Shown: positions 26,102 through 31,609, counted from the first letter of the stretch. The stretch is 50,048 nt of DNA from Escherichia phage vB_EcoS_IME347 (MH051918); one strand, 5' to 3'. A program made the numbers and translations. The notes: generated by a model from the letters alone, not told the origin.

Positions 26102-29100
26102 ATGAATCAAAAAGTGATAAGCGGCTCAAAGGGTGGCGGCGGAAGTCCGCACAAGCCCGTTGAAATGGAAGATAACCTGATCTCCATCAACAAAATCAGA
26201 GTTCTACTCGCTGTGTCTGACGGTGAAGTAGATCCCGATTTCGATATGTCCATGTTGTACTTGGACAACGTTCCAGTGATGAACAAAGACGGAACTTACA
26301 ACTACGAAGGAATCAAGGCGGAGTTCCGCCCCGGCACTCAGACGCAGGATTACATTCAGGGGTTCACCGACAGCGCAAGCGAAGTCACTATGAACCGGGT
26401 AATCAAAACTGACACCCCGTTTAGCATCAACGTTACGAACCGGAACCTTTCGGCAATCCGAATCAAGATGTTCATGGCTCGCGGCGTAAAGGTTGAGAGC
26501 AACGGCGACAAGAACGGCGTTCGCGTTGAATACAAGGTTGAAATGGCTGTGGATGGTGGAGCTTTCGAACCTGCACTCACTGACGTGATTGACGGAAAAA
26601 CAATGTCAGGATATGACCGTAGCCGCCGCATTAATCTGCCCTCGTTCAACTCTCAGGTGATCTTGCGAGTGTCTCGCGTAACGCCGGACTCCGACGATTC
26701 CAACCTGATTGACGAGATCCAGTTGCGCAGCTATGCGGAGGTTATTGACGCGAAGTTTCGTTATCCGCTGACCGGGCTACTGTTCGTTGAGTTCGATTCG
26801 CAGATGTTCCCGAACCAGATCCCGAACATTTCAATCAAAAAGAAATGGAAGGTTGTCAATGTACCGACGAACTACAACCCGGTAACTCGTGATTACTCTG
26901 GCACTTGGGACGGAACGTTTAAAAAGGCGTGGACGAACAACCCGGCTTGGGTTCTGTACGACATTATCACCAACCAACGTTACGGGCTTGACCAACGCGA
27001 GCTTGGGATTGATGTTGATAAGTGGTCGCTTTACGACGCCGGGCGCTATTGTGATCAGATGGTTCCAGACGGAAAGGGCGGAACCGAGCCGCGATATCTA
27101 TGCGACGTGGTTATTCAATCGCAGGTTGAGGCGTTTAAACTGGTGCGCGATATCTGCTCAATCTTCCGGGGTATGAGCTTTTGGAACGGCGAAAGCCTGT
27201 CTATTGTGATCGACAAGCCGCGCGAGCCGTCTTACATCTTCACGAACGAGAACGTTGTGAACGGTAATTTCTCATACGCTTTCGCGAGTGAGAAAAGCAT
27301 GTATACGGTGTGCAATGTCCAGTTTGATGATGAAGAGAACCTTTATCAACAGGACGTGGAGCCTGTTTTCGATACTGATGCGGCTCGCAGATTCGGCAAC
27401 AACCCGACGAGCATTACAGCGATCGGATGTACCCGGCGCAGTGAGGCTAATCGCCGGGGGCGCTGGATTCTCAGAACCAATTTACGAAGCACTACGATCA
27501 GTTTTGCTACCGGATTGGAAGGAATGATTCCGCAGATTGGCGATGTTATCGCGGTGGCGGATAACTCATTCTCAAGCAACCTCACGCTTAACCTTTCTGG
27601 TCGCGTGATGGAAGTTTCGGGATTGCAGGTTTTCACCGCCTTTAAGGTTGACGCTCGCGCAGGTGATTTTATTGTCGTAAATAAGCCGGATGGGAAGCCC
27701 GAGAAGAGGACTATCGCATCGGTATCGCCTGACGGCAAGACTATACAGTTAAACGTCGCATTCAGCTTCTCTGTGGCTCCTAACACTATCTTTGCAATTG
27801 ACCGCACGGACGTAGCGTTACAGCAATTCGTTGTTACGGATATTTCCAAGGGCGACAATGAAGAAGAGTTTGTGTTTAGCATTACTGCGGTTGAGTATGA
27901 CCCGAACAAGTACGACGCGATCGACTACGGAGTAAACGTTGACGAAAGGCCTACAAGCATTGTCGATCCTGACAAGCTTCCTCAGCCGCAAAACGTGCAG
28001 ATTGAGTCCTTCTCTCGTGTGGTTCAGGGCGTAAGCGTTGAAACGATGGTTATCAGTTGGGATAAGGTTCAGTATGCGGCTCAGTACGAAATCCAATGGC
28101 GAAAGGGTAATGGCAACTGGATTAACACGACACCAACGGCGAACAATGAAACGTTTATCGAAGGCATTTACGCCGGGCAATACTTCGTTCGGGTTCGCGC
28201 TGTATCGTCGGCGGGCAATGCTTCAATGTGGTCTGAAGTTGTCAGCGCATCACTGACGGGTAAAGTCGGAGAGCCGGGTTCGCCAATTAACTTCACGGCG
28301 TCCGATGATGTTGTTTTTGGCATTCGCCTGAAATGGGGCATGCCGGAAGGGACTGAAGATACCGCATATATTGAGGTTCAGCAGTCACCAAACAACAGCA
28401 TTGAAAATGCATCACTGCTAACGCTCGTTCCATACCCTCAACATGAGTATTTCCATACTCCACTTGAGGCCGGGAAGATGATCTTCTACCGCATTCGTGC
28501 GATAGACAGGATCGGAAATGTGTCCGGGTGGACTGACCTGATTCCGGGGATTGCCTCAACTGACGTTGAGAGCATTATCGGGGAAATCAAGGTTGATATC
28601 GAAAACTCCGAGGGGTTCAAGTGGTTGCAGGAAAATGCGGTAGATGCAAACTCGAAGATTCACGGGGCGGCTGAAGCGATAATCGAAACCACGCTGGCTA
28701 ACGATCGTGATGTTCGTATTCAGCGCAAGCGGAACGGGAAGTTCACTGCTCAGTTTAAGCAGTCATTCCAGTTAATCGCAGATGAAACGCAAGCAAGAGT
28801 TGAGCAGTATCAGGAGTTACAGGCCGACTTTGACGGAAAGATAACCGCAACTTCAACTCAGCTTAACCAGGCGATCGCTAACGAAAGGGAGGCGAGAACA
28901 ACTCAGGTAAACCAGATTAGCGCAACGTTCGGCGGAAACCTTGACGATCTTAGCGATAGGGTTGATGGTGATATCGGGGATCTTAATGGAAGGGTTGATG
29001 GTGAGGTTCGGGCTCGTCAAGCTGCGATCTCAAACGTAAACCAAGCCATTGCGAACGAAACCGAGGCGCGAGTTCAGGCTATCAATGATTTGAAAGCGCA

Positions 29101-29683
29101 GGTTGGCAGCGACATTCAAGGCCAGCTAACGCAGTTGAATCAGGCGATCGCCAATGAGACTTCGGCGCGAGTTTCGGCTGATACGGCTCTTAGCACAAGG
29201 ATCGGGAATAACACTGCGGCTCTGAACCAGAAACTTGATTCATGGGCTAACGCAACATCGGTTGGCGCTATGTACGGCGTCAAGCTTGGGTTGAGGTATA
29301 ACGGGGTTGACTACTCCGCAGGGTTGGCAATGTCTCTGGTTGGATCTGGTAATACTGTCAAGTCTCAGCTTTTGCTACAGGCCGACAGGTTCGCAGTTTT
29401 CAACGGGGCAAACAACCAATACCGATATCCGTTCGTTGTTGAGGGCGGGCAGGTTATACTCAGCAGCACGGTTATTAAGGACGGTTTCATTACGAACGCG
29501 ATGATCGGGAACGAGATCAAGTCAAACAACTATGTTGCAGGTCAGACAGGATGGAGGATTGATAAGAACGGTAACTTTGAGATTAACGGCAAGACGGGAA
29601 CCGGAAGGTTGACCATCAACAATAACACTGTGAGCGTTTACGACGCGAACAACCGCCTACGCGTTCGCATGGGCTTGTGGTAA
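26102..29683 (+). CDS. central tail fiber / host specificity protein (lambda J-like)
   Basis: 1193-aa ORF at the end of the lambda-like tail cluster; C-terminal region contains degenerate QLNQAIANE-type repeats. Confidence 0.85.
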   Translation: MNQKVISGSKGGGGSPHKPVEMEDNLISINKIRVLLAVSDGEVDPDFDMSMLYLDNVPVMNKDGTYNYEGIKAEFRPGTQTQDYIQGFTDSASEVTMNRVIKTDTPFSINVTNRNLSAIRIKMFMARGVKVESNGDKNGVRVEYKVEMAVDGGAFEPALTDVIDGKTMSGYDRSRRINLPSFNSQVILRVSRVTPDSDDSNLIDEIQLRSYAEVIDAKFRYPLTGLLFVEFDSQMFPNQIPNISIKKKWKVVNVPTNYNPVTRDYSGTWDGTFKKAWTNNPAWVLYDIITNQRYGLDQRELGIDVDKWSLYDAGRYCDQMVPDGKGGTEPRYLCDVVIQSQVEAFKLVRDICSIFRGMSFWNGESLSIVIDKPREPSYIFTNENVVNGNFSYAFASEKSMYTVCNVQFDDEENLYQQDVEPVFDTDAARRFGNNPTSITAIGCTRRSEANRRGRWILRTNLRSTTISFATGLEGMIPQIGDVIAVADNSFSSNLTLNLSGRVMEVSGLQVFTAFKVDARAGDFIVVNKPDGKPEKRTIASVSPDGKTIQLNVAFSFSVAPNTIFAIDRTDVALQQFVVTDISKGDNEEEFVFSITAVEYDPNKYDAIDYGVNVDERPTSIVDPDKLPQPQNVQIESFSRVVQGVSVETMVISWDKVQYAAQYEIQWRKGNGNWINTTPTANNETFIEGIYAGQYFVRVRAVSSAGNASMWSEVVSASLTGKVGEPGSPINFTASDDVVFGIRLKWGMPEGTEDTAYIEVQQSPNNSIENASLLTLVPYPQHEYFHTPLEAGKMIFYRIRAIDRIGNVSGWTDLIPGIASTDVESIIGEIKVDIENSEGFKWLQENAVDANSKIHGAAEAIIETTLANDRDVRIQRKRNGKFTAQFKQSFQLIADETQARVEQYQELQADFDGKITATSTQLNQAIANEREARTTQVNQISATFGGNLDDLSDRVDGDIGDLNGRVDGEVRARQAAISNVNQAIANETEARVQAINDLKAQVGSDIQGQLTQLNQAIANETSARVSADTALSTRIGNNTAALNQKLDSWANATSVGAMYGVKLGLRYNGVDYSAGLAMSLVGSGNTVKSQLLLQADRFAVFNGANNQYRYPFVVEGGQVILSSTVIKDGFITNAMIGNEIKSNNYVAGQTGWRIDKNGNFEINGKTGTGRLTINNNTVSVYDANNRLRVRMGLW

Positions 29684-29684
29684 T

Positions 29685-29716
29685 AAAAAAGGCTCCTTAT
29701 TGGAGCCTTTTCTTTT
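29685..29716. terminator. bidirectional intrinsic terminator
   Basis: aaaaaaggctcc-ttat-tggagcctttt hairpin flanked by A and T runs, between convergent genes. Confidence 0.65.
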
Positions 29717-30053
29717 ACATGATGGTTACTTTGTTGTCGTCTTTCATTTTTCGTGAAGTCTGTGTAGCGATCAGGTCGTCATATCCCATCTTTCCTTTGT
29801 TCCAGTGAAAGACGGTATTGTAGACGCCGGAATCTTTATAGCACATTACATGTACGTTCTTACGCAGGTGCTTGTCGAAAATCACGTTGTCTGATTGGTT
29901 GATCGTCACGGTCTTTTCGGCGCAGTTGATTGTAGCATGAGTCGAACCGTTCAGAGAGAGGCGGCTGGCGTCAACCGGATATCCGATATTTGCATTGAAT
30001 GCCATAGCGTTAAAAGAAGCTGTGAACATGATAGCGGCGATGATTTTTTTCAT
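29715..30053 (-). CDS. secreted hypothetical protein (112 aa) with cleavable signal peptide
   Basis: N-terminus MKKIIAAIMFTASFNAMA-F is typical of a Sec signal peptide with an AXA site and no lipobox Cys; has its own upstream motif module at 30076-30129. Confidence 0.5.
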   Translation of the reverse strand: MKKIIAAIMFTASFNAMAFNANIGYPVDASRLSLNGSTHATINCAEKTVTINQSDNVIFDKHLRKNVHVMCYKDSGVYNTVFHWNKGKMGYDDLIATQTSRKMKDDNKVTIM

Positions 30054-30109
30054 TGGTGTTTCCTCGTTTCGTTTTGATGAATGCAGTATAGCCCCGTTTC
30101 CGGGGCTTG

Positions 30110-30129
30110 TTTTAGCAATTCGTGCTGTC
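30110..30129 (-). promoter_or_regulatory. intergenic motif copy (reverse orientation) with hairpin and TATACT
   Basis: Reverse complement reads TGACAGCACGAATTGCTAAAA and includes the stop codon of the 216-aa gene, followed on the - strand by hairpin ccccggaaacgggg and TATACT. Confidence 0.5.
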
Positions 30130-30778
30130 AGTTGTAACCTTGGAATCTGGCATAAGGAATCTTGAGCCGTCCACGGCCTGAGAATATCTCAGCGAAAGAC
30201 TTCTGGTTATTCCTTATCCATGTTGTTTGCAACTGCGATCCCGTCCATCTCATTAGGTTCCCCGAGTAGCCAACGGCGAAACCGTCGTCACTCCACTGCC
30301 CGAAGCAGTTATTCCATAGGAAAAACGGGTTGAATCCCGGCGTCACCGACACGACCCGACCCTCAAGGTTTACGTTTCCGGCAACGTCAAGGAATCCCAT
30401 AATTCGAGGCATTGTCGCAGCGCTCGCGGCAGACCAGACAAGATTCCCGCTGGCGTCGAAAACGTCCAAGTAGCCCGACACGTTGGGCTTGTTTCTTGAC
30501 GTCCTAATTACCCTGATCGAGTTCGGAACGAACAGGTTCGCGCCGGGATATCCCCAACCGTTATTGGCGGTGAACTGAATCCAGTATAGATAACCATCCT
30601 CCCGCTTGAAATTGTAGTTCAGATAAGCGAGGGAGCTTACATTTCCAAATGGAGTTGACACGTTGTAATCGCCTGTATTCAACATTCCGGGCGTAACGAT
30701 GGAATCGAAAATCGTGTGTTTCTGATCGGAGTTGATCAGGACTACCCCGGCGTCATTCAAAACCTCAAAACCTGACAT
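30128..30778 (-). CDS. hypothetical beta-rich protein (216 aa), paralog of the 30788..31096 product
   Basis: Shares DASGNLV and N-terminal G-hydrophobic-x-hydrophobic-(W/L)-(N)DA motifs with the adjacent ORF; Gly/Asn/Ser/Val-rich. Confidence 0.5.
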   Translation of the reverse strand: MSGFEVLNDAGVVLINSDQKHTIFDSIVTPGMLNTGDYNVSTPFGNVSSLAYLNYNFKREDGYLYWIQFTANNGWGYPGANLFVPNSIRVIRTSRNKPNVSGYLDVFDASGNLVWSAASAATMPRIMGFLDVAGNVNLEGRVVSVTPGFNPFFLWNNCFGQWSDDGFAVGYSGNLMRWTGSQLQTTWIRNNQKSFAEIFSGRGRLKIPYARFQGYN

Positions 30779-30787
30779 AATTCCCCC

Positions 30788-31096
30788 TTAGTTGAACATG
30801 TAGACTTCTACGTATAGCGTGAGATCCACCGATGGATTTCTCCCCGGAACGTAGATGATATCAATGCCTCCCGATCTGCACACGGGGGCGTAATCGGTAA
30901 CGTATGTCGCTCCGAGGTTCGCACCCATCACGGAGGCGAACGAATTCGAATCCGTCACTCCCGCGATATTTAGCTGAACCCTGTCAACCGATCGCGGAAA
31001 GCTGACATTATACCGCCCGACAAATCGGGTGCTGTAATCACCGAGATCGACAACGAGATTTCCCGAAGCGTCCCAACATTGCAAGCCAGCCGCCAT
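30788..31096 (-). CDS. hypothetical protein (102 aa), paralog of the N-terminal part of the 216-aa protein
   Basis: MAAGLQCWDASGNLVVDLGDY motif; first gene leftward of control region B. Confidence 0.5.
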   Translation of the reverse strand: MAAGLQCWDASGNLVVDLGDYSTRFVGRYNVSFPRSVDRVQLNIAGVTDSNSFASVMGANLGATYVTDYAPVCRSGGIDIIYVPGRNPSVDLTLYVEVYMFN

Positions 31097-31609
31097 AGCA
31101 TTTTCCTCCCAAAATTAATGAATACACATATTAGCTTTTTGCCCTCGGGGAGTCAAAGTTACAGATTTTGCGGTGTAACATCTGTCTACTTTTGTAACCA
31201 AAATGAGGCGTGACAAAATTCGCTCATTTTTTAATCAGCATGACGCACCTTAAGATATAGAAAACTCCTTATAATATATATAGATAGATATAAATTGTTA
31301 TTTTACCTTTTATATATAAATTAGAGGTGTAACCGTTGTATATATTGTCACGGTGTATTTTGTGATGCGCTCAATTTTCTACATCATAATCATGTGAATT
31401 CTGTATTGCGGTATTTTTCTATAAACACAGTTACATTGTATACAGTGGTTACGCCGCAATAAAACACGCCTCAAACGCTTGATATTTATGGACTCGCATT
31501 GTCACGGGTAATTTTGTGACGCCCGAATACACTCATTGACATCGTTACAGGTTGACTAAATGCCGGGAATGGTTATACTGTCCACATCATCAACGAAGGA
31601 GATAAACGA
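31097..31609. promoter_or_regulatory. AT-rich divergent control region B with operator-like inverted repeats
   Basis: 513-bp non-coding region; GTCAC-N10-GTGAC-type elements at 31207-31223, 31345-31370 and 31498-31524; conserved block at 31423-31465 shared with region A. Confidence 0.5.
31552..31579 (+). promoter_or_regulatory. sigma70-like promoter (TTGACT-N16-TATACT) for the recombination operon
   Basis: TTGACT at 31552-31557 and TATACT at 31574-31579, 16-nt spacer, about 30 nt upstream of the RBS of ORF 31610. Confidence 0.5.

Follow-up and report, generated by a model that had tools for sequence, protein, structure and literature searches.

In Escherichia phage vB_EcoS_IME347 (MH051918), a T1-like coliphage of the Drexlerviridae, three small leftward genes stand beside the gene for the J-like central tail fibre. 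They are called A, B and C here, the fibre gene is called J (coordinates in Table 1), and the whole 50,048 bp analysed is referred to as the window. We consider it likely that the trio is a host-recognition cassette, in which the A and B products would form a tail-tip binder of the outer-membrane transporter YncD, now named PqqU, and the C product would be a periplasmic, TonB-like blocker of the same receptor. The system has already been described, as a prediction, for the sister phage IsaakIselin, and the trio reported here is the IME347 copy of it. In that study (Science Advances 2025; PMC12124388), the IsaakIselin orthologs were modelled with PqqU by AlphaFold2-multimer. The B ortholog QXV80560 (receptor-binding protein 1, RBP-1) and the A ortholog QXV80561 (RBP-2) were predicted to dimerise on the extracellular face of PqqU, and the C ortholog QXV80559 (SIP-1), which has a signal peptide and is TonB-like by Foldseek, was predicted to bind the periplasmic face. 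We reached the same conclusions independently of that prediction, and their value lies in a confirmation from the phage that first revealed YncD as a receptor. In addition, the present analysis contributes a dedicated promoter-like module before C, sequence-level support for the TonB relationship, lipoprotein versions of C on the opposite strand in many enterobacterial prophages, a fold link of YncD-type to LptD-type RBPs, and homologs of A and B in N4-like phages.

The receptor of IME347 is known from experiment. The phage requires YncD, an outer-membrane TonB-dependent transporter, as evidenced by resistant mutants, a knockout, complementation and adsorption assays, and a tonB mutant is still infected (PMC6499177). 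In small siphoviruses, the BASEL paper defined 'bona fide RBP loci' as those directly downstream of gpJ, and a 2026 preprint confirmed a YncD-associated protein family at this locus and described J C-termini as specific to the RBP type. The IME347 trio is located directly downstream of the gpJ homolog, with the end of C 32 nt past the J stop codon, and fills the space that separates J from the recE/erf/ssb block, an arrangement also seen in IsaakIselin. The initial annotation of this DNA had described three leftward open reading frames (ORFs) placed directly beside J, and all three are present on the minus strand, convergent with J; its description of the locus is confirmed except for the word 'paralogous'.

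Homologs of A, B and C co-occur in about 40–57 phage records (tblastn), including those of IsaakIselin, JohannLBurckhardt, NBD2, Henu7, Klebsiella phages and lambdoids such as HK639. The BASEL phages IsaakIselin and JohannLBurckhardt use YncD as receptor, the Klebsiella phages KLB19 and KLB26 require pqqU (PMC13412088), and homologs of all three genes are found in each of these four phages. With YncD also being the receptor of IME347 itself, the locus alleles track the experimentally determined receptor, and the trio represents the allele, specific for YncD/PqqU, of the known receptor-binding locus that follows gpJ. General searches gave little. A megablast of the region against a phage collection in which IME347 itself is absent matched only 118 bp of the J end, Pfam and PADLOC returned no match for A, B or C, and the PHROGs matches were only families of unknown function (phrog_7961 for A).

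Gene order was compared across 82 loci (80 IMG/VR loci around B homologs and 2 phage-collection loci), with A, B, C and J mapped in each. A accompanies B, immediately upstream of it, in 81 of the 82, and C accompanies B in 80, across two unrelated phage backbones. The Drexlerviridae-type set comprises 5 loci from 4 phages, including the window itself (two of the loci are from the same phage as phage-collection loci), and in all of them A, B and C share one direction and converge with J. In the lambdoid or prophage-type loci (about 75), J, A and B follow one another in that order on a single strand, the J stop is overlapped by the A start (ATGGTGATG) and the A stop by the B start, and C lies 18 nt past B on the strand opposite to J-A-B. 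The translational coupling of A and B to J in these lambdoid relatives marks both as tail-tip structural proteins, while the separate orientation of C is expected of a gene expressed outside the late operon, for example from a prophage. Further, in the N4-like Acinetobacter phage Presley, the A homolog Presley_59 precedes the B homolog Presley_58, after a tail protein. Linkage of J, A, B and C is otherwise strict but has exceptions. One locus (L050) has B and C and no match to A or J, and in two long contigs of 72 kb and 107 kb (L061 and L062, 5001–5639) A and B homologs are present, but neither C nor a J C-terminus was detected in their vicinity.

Gene B provides the structural argument. The initial annotation had called its product beta-rich, and the AlphaFold2 model, built with 62 homologs, is almost all beta and confident (predicted score in the local distance difference test, pLDDT, 90; predicted template modelling score, pTM, 0.84). 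The model had one outstanding match in PDB, the LptD-binding RBP of phage Oekolampad, with which it shares its fold. The B profile found nothing at E<=10 among PDB sequences, and given the lack of a sequence relation to the Oekolampad RBP/Rtp44, B is not filed in the LptD-type RBP family. The fold match comes without sequence relation, and YncD-type and LptD-type RBPs, described as unrelated families, appear from these models to share a fold. Among viral models, those with a B-like fold by Foldseek belong to phages of Acinetobacter, Pseudomonas, Pectobacterium and Proteus, N4-like ones included. The matches in Pseudomonas N4-like phages are uncharacterised proteins, unmapped to gp54 or gp55 of phage DEV, and tblastn from the Presley B homolog toward Pseudomonas N4-like phages such as DEV gave no Pseudomonas matches, so that the comparison with DEV is by analogy, supported only by these fold matches. 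All B homologs taken from the protein database (P0001–P0120) carry the precomputed Pfam accession PF28254; as the local Pfam-A gave no B match, a recent Pfam family probably covers B.

An alternative assignment would make the C-terminal domain of J the true receptor binder and reduce A and B to assembly chaperones or accessory host-range factors without contact to YncD. We hold this to be very unlikely. Among relatives with this locus, the C-terminal ~300 residues of J are indeed less conserved than its N-terminus (44–53% against 74–77% identity), and J itself carries the specificity in lambda and in relatives that target TolC, LamB or NupG; but the last ~30 residues of J are conserved among phages with the locus rather than variable, as for a docking site, and the fold of B is also found in a solved RBP that makes direct contact with its receptor. 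AlphaFold2-multimer also places both orthologs on the extracellular face of PqqU (PMC12124388), and in DEV the equivalents are essential and part of the fibre complex, with the RBP equivalent detected in virions (PMC12892993). The reading of A and B as the tail-tip binder accommodates the J end as well. Its last ~30 residues are common to the J proteins of IsaakIselin and the lambdoid HK639 (…VYDxNxxLRVRMGLW/F), and Rtp43, from an LptD-type locus, differs from IME347 J in this part. A tail end shared by YncD-type loci and not by Rtp fits a docking site for a cognate partner, and the J C-terminus is a probable docking site for the cognate A-B pair.

The relationship between A and B themselves was over-read in the initial annotation, which took them for paralogs on account of a common DASGNLV motif and similar N-terminal segments. 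Both likenesses exist. DASGNLV occurs at residues 9–15 of A and 108–114 of B (8/11 identities, E=0.035, BLASTP), and hhalign aligns the N-terminus of A, MAAGLQCWDASGNLVVDLGD, with that of B, MSGFEVLNDAGVVLINSD. The profile–profile alignment, however, covers only the ~30 N-terminal residues at a probability of 5%, and comparison of A with each half of B gave 5–18%. The likeness amounts to a short hairpin motif of roughly 12–30 residues (hydrophobic-x-hydrophobic-aromatic-D/N-x-x-G-x-hydrophobic) that lies at the start of A, at the start of B and again at B residues 104–115. In both families it consists largely of invariant or near-invariant residues: G4, Q6, W8, D9 and G12 are invariant in the A family, N8, G102, D105 and G111 are invariant in the B family, and G3, F4, E5 and G11 of B are kept in at least 90% of sequences. 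Paralogy as a demonstrated fact was rejected, since BLASTP and hhalign gave only a short motif and low probabilities.

As an explanation, a true duplication, in which each half of B is a copy of the A domain and the pair makes a pseudo-symmetric three-domain binder, appears doubtful. The hairpin that opens A, opens B and recurs in the middle of B would suit it, as would an analogous two-fold repeat in Rtp44, and against these stand the hhalign probabilities of 4–18% beyond the motif. In Rtp44 (phage Rtp, L083, 6753–7688, minus strand), the opening motif QGIYIDLNDG is at the N-terminus and QGIYVADSTD is in mid-protein. This repeat parallels the repeated hairpin in B, which hints at a common two-domain architecture. 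A looser version of the motif, defined post hoc, also fits the last residues of J (VSVYDANNRLRV). It matches at 29630–29665 (J C-terminus), 31049–31084 (A N-terminus), 30734–30769 (B N-terminus) and 30434–30469 (mid-B) and nowhere else in the six-frame translation of the window, with 0.005 matches expected in shuffles. These sites hint that the tail-tip proteins assemble through matching hairpins.

Gene C, whose product is gp53 of IME347 (100% identity), adjoins B and encodes an exported protein. The classical Sec signal peptide recognised in the initial annotation is borne out, consisting of MKK, the 11 hydrophobic residues IIAAIMFTASF, and NAMA before the cleavage site and F after it, with Ala at −3 and −1 (A-x-A). 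The five Drexlerviridae-type loci (four phages) and eight further close homologs in the alignment have NA(M/L)A followed by (F/L)N, or SASA followed by FN, and no Cys near the site. Lambdoid C homologs, apart from one truncated ORF, instead carry a lipobox-like …G-C (LAGC, AAGC, MFGC) before the same mature domain. Two cysteines, C44 and C71, are invariant in the C family and, as far as the sequence can tell, would fit a periplasmic disulfide.

The mature part of C points to TonB. The AlphaFold2 model has a confident core (residues 21–80, pLDDT 83–94) and the topology helix, hairpin, helix, strand, strand, and it shows the alpha/beta fold of the TonB C-terminal domain. The best match of the C family profile in PDB is a TonB homolog (E=0.56), with the YP-x2-A-x6-G signature and the next hairpin aligned. 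By hhalign, C residues 4–46 were placed on E. coli TonB 160–207, and in a shuffle test 1 of 5000 shuffled TonB C-terminal domains scored as well. Also, the NCBIfam TonB model matched 6 of the 22 C family members (best E 0.0026). The profile searches and structure predictions that had been recommended for these genes in the initial annotation gave an RBP-like fold for B and a TonB-like one for C. C appears to be a periplasmic homolog of the TonB C-terminal domain. On the receptor side, the mature N-terminus of YncD/PqqU, ADEQTMIVSA, is Ton-box-like. Four relatives of C (P0151, P0153, P0154 and P0155) are longer, at 196–271 aa; their TonB-like domain stands at the C-terminus, preceded by a hydrophobic segment (…KIGLAFAGAALLFSGMTRA) and, before that, an N-terminal region. 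Of their contexts, the one looked at (P0153; L087 1819–2529) is an early-gene region of a phage contig, away from tail genes. These long relatives could be a third, membrane-anchored form of the protein or over-extended gene calls.

A TonB-like protein in the periplasm might also act broadly. C would then be a general TonB antagonist that fills the Ton boxes of many transporters, shuts TonB-dependent uptake and excludes TonB-dependent phages and colicins at large. In fold and signature, C corresponds to the part of TonB that pairs with the conserved Ton box, and a general block would cost IME347 nothing, as it has no need of TonB. We nevertheless regard this as quite improbable, because the linkage of C to YncD-type A-B in 80 of the 82 loci, on two backbones and even where C is inverted, is expected of a cognate, receptor-specific partner. 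The family is also very small (18 clusters among 1.84 billion representative proteins), and AlphaFold2-multimer puts the ortholog on PqqU, though other transporters were perhaps not tried (PMC12124388).

The expression signals set C apart from A and B. A box, AGCACGAATTGCTAA, occurs in 25 copies in the window (<=3 mismatches; Table 1), mostly in front of small genes. The module has the box as (A)ATAGCACGAATTGCTAAA, a −10-like hexamer ~22 nt later in most copies and an inverted repeat before or across the hexamer, and continues with a leader such as CATCGAAACGAAAC…AGGA and then ATG. One of the copies lies between the B stop and the C start, where an early-type motif module (30076–30129) had been noted in the initial annotation. 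It comprises the box (30126–30112), the hairpin GCCCCG-GAAA-CGGGGC (30107–30090), which is unique within the window, a −10-like TATACT (30090–30085) and a ribosome-binding site (RBS), GAGGA (30065–30061). The module is kept at the same position in IsaakIselin, Henu7 and NBD2, though the flanking proteins are only 54–74% identical. The hairpin at 30090–30107 was considered as a terminator of B and rejected, as it is not followed by a T-run on the minus strand and forms part of a recurrent promoter-like module.

No such box precedes A or B. The two are separated by 9 nt, B has its own RBS, and the spacer between B and C is 74 nt. At ~30 nt upstream of the A start there is a weak sigma-70-like site, in a region that has no more sites of this kind than its shuffled versions. 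Judged by this arrangement, C is putatively made from its own promoter-like module, separately from A and B. At 22 nt, the distance from TTGCTA exceeds that of a standard sigma-70 −35/−10 pair, so that the box may be an UP-like element or a site for a regulator, with the inverted repeats as possible operators.

From the gene anatomy, homology, folds and synteny described above and the receptor identity reported in the cited papers, we infer the following course of events. A and B would be late products that assemble onto the C-terminal end of the J fibre trimer, probably as a heterodimer, and B, probably with A, would bind the extracellular face of YncD/PqqU, leading to irreversible adsorption. 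C would be made from its own module, exported by Sec and cleaved, leaving in the periplasm a soluble protein that has the TonB C-terminal-domain fold. It would bind the periplasmic face of YncD/PqqU, plausibly via the Ton box, and fix the transporter in a state to which the A-B complex cannot attach. The infected cell would thereby be protected from superinfection, and the progeny from wasteful adsorption to debris, as by Llp for T5. This working model for C is adopted by analogy with T5 and Cor. An Llp-type protein binds the periplasmic face of a TonB-dependent transporter and stops RBP binding by 'reverse allostery' (PMC9586334), and the FhuA-Llp structure (PMC9586334) and the LptDE-Rtp45 structure (PMC12685063) serve as mechanistic precedents.

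Several observations weigh against this scheme. The C model is moderately confident overall (mean pLDDT 74.6), with residues 90–97 below 50. Pfam TonB_C gave no match to C at E<=10, and the TonB likeness is not shown to reach any curated Pfam or NCBIfam threshold. Llp, Cor and Rtp45, the exclusion proteins characterised at loci of this type, are small lipoproteins, whereas C of IME347 has no lipobox, and C resembles none of the three in sequence or fold. Infection by IME347 is independent of TonB, which means that simple competition with TonB cannot explain exclusion and that an allosteric effect must be assumed. In phage PHB17, no promoter-like module stands before the C homolog, which follows B after 13 nt with an RBS only (L006 5648–5662), so a dedicated C promoter is not universal among Drexlerviridae with this locus. 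Finally, the literature searched contained no exclusion experiment on A, B, C or any ortholog, and the published support is structure prediction.

The initial annotation had proposed superinfection exclusion or receptor masking, or accessory fibre or host-range components, as roles for the trio. Computational and comparative evidence favours the former for C, in that the protein is TonB-like and periplasmic and the receptor TonB-dependent, and the YncD/PqqU allele, the fold of a solved RBP in B and the coupling to J favour the latter for A and B. Its statement that the functions are unknown is out of date, since roles were already predicted for the IsaakIselin orthologs (PMC12124388). A wider scenario can also be drawn, and seems improbable to us. 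C would be a Ton-box binder that jams several TonB-dependent transporters, with broad exclusion of phages and colicins and a stop of nutrient import; its family would have switched anchoring, from soluble protein to outer-membrane lipoprotein to N-terminal membrane segment, between virulent and temperate phages; and YncD-type and LptD-type RBPs would derive from one ancestral fold, as part of an adaptor-plus-RBP module spanning siphoviruses and N4-like podoviruses.

A cassette of this kind sets which cell-surface protein the phage uses. Because such cassettes are swapped as modules among phages, they are a natural target for predicting or re-engineering host range. If the receptor-blocking role of C is true, a phage copy of the transporter-engaging domain of TonB would be a neat way to disable a receptor from inside, and C would be a useful probe of TonB-dependent transport.

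The coordinates of the features are collected in Table 1. Between the divergent A and recE-like genes, a ~500-bp AT-rich non-coding stretch (31097–31609) has TATA-rich runs and several promoter-like sites on both strands, and is probably a divergent regulatory region.

Table 1. Features of the receptor-binding locus of IME347 and copies of the promoter-like module in the window.
Feature	Position	Strand	Description
Gene A	30788..31096	-	102 aa; proposed J-tip partner or adaptor of B; ortholog of IsaakIselin RBP-2
Gene B	30128..30778	-	216 aa, beta-rich; main candidate RBP for YncD/PqqU; ortholog of IsaakIselin RBP-1
Gene C	29715..30053	-	112 aa, secreted; probable superinfection-exclusion factor; ortholog of IsaakIselin SIP-1
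C signal peptide, residues 1-18	30000-30053	-	leaves a mature TonB-C-terminal-domain-like protein of 94 aa
Gene J, J-like central tail fibre	26102..29683	+	1193 aa; convergent with A/B/C
J extreme C-terminus (…GRLTINNNTVSVYDANNRLRVRMGLW, then stop)	29594..29683	+	where A and B probably dock
Bidirectional hairpin terminator between the J and C ends	29687..29711	both	10-bp stem AAAAGGCTCC-TTATT-GGAGCCTTTT, T-run on each strand
Promoter-like module and leader dedicated to C	30054..30127	-	one of the 25 module copies
Candidate sigma-70-type promoter of an A-B(-C) transcript	31128..31156	-	TTGACT-17-TAATAT, consensus scan 9/12
Module copies	971, 1236, 2253, 2954, 3643, 4653, 5473, 5979, 7176, 7644, 9583, 32689, 35801, 39884, 40903, 41234, 42880	+	
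Module copies	34, 30126, 36898, 46636, 47138, 47682, 49513, 49877	-	

Among known systems, IsaakIselin (Bas10) is the closest. Its orthologs lie next to J in the same order and orientation, with amino-acid identities of 74% for B, 64% for A (bas10_0026/QXV80561) and 54% for C, and the same promoter-like module stands between B and C. The receptor is YncD/PqqU in both phages, and the same roles have been predicted, including the TonB-like fold and signal peptide of the C ortholog (PMC12124388). At the DNA level no similarity was found by megablast, and nothing functionally different was detected. The pairing of an RBP gene with an adjoining gene for a small exported protein is also seen in T5 (pb5/Llp) and in T1/phi80-type phages with Cor, where the receptor is FhuA (PMC9586334). 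In the Oekolampad/Rtp44 system, the RBP shares its fold with B without sequence similarity, and the locus has one RBP gene, compared with two in IME347, and the exclusion gene upstream of it. The exclusion protein there, Rtp45, is a ~6 kDa lipoprotein, and LptD, unlike YncD, is not a TonB-dependent transporter (PMC12685063).

Compared with the C-terminal domain of E. coli TonB (residues ~150–239), C stands alone and bears a signal peptide that can be cleaved off. An N-terminal membrane anchor, a proline-rich spacer and ExbBD coupling are all missing, its two invariant cysteines have no such counterpart in TonB, and it falls below the family thresholds. For A and B, the comparison is with the gp56-gp55-gp54 genes of DEV (Schitoviridae), whose stop and start codons overlap and whose products are a gpJ-like fibre, a small adaptor and an RBP, with one adaptor and one RBP on the tip of the trimeric fibre; the target of DEV is LptD, and an exclusion gene is not described in that phage (PMC12892993). 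No sequence link between DEV and A or B was found, and the likeness is by analogy. In IME347, A and B differ from the DEV arrangement in lying on the strand opposite to J with their own upstream region, whereas the lambdoid J-A-B loci have the same layout as the DEV operon.

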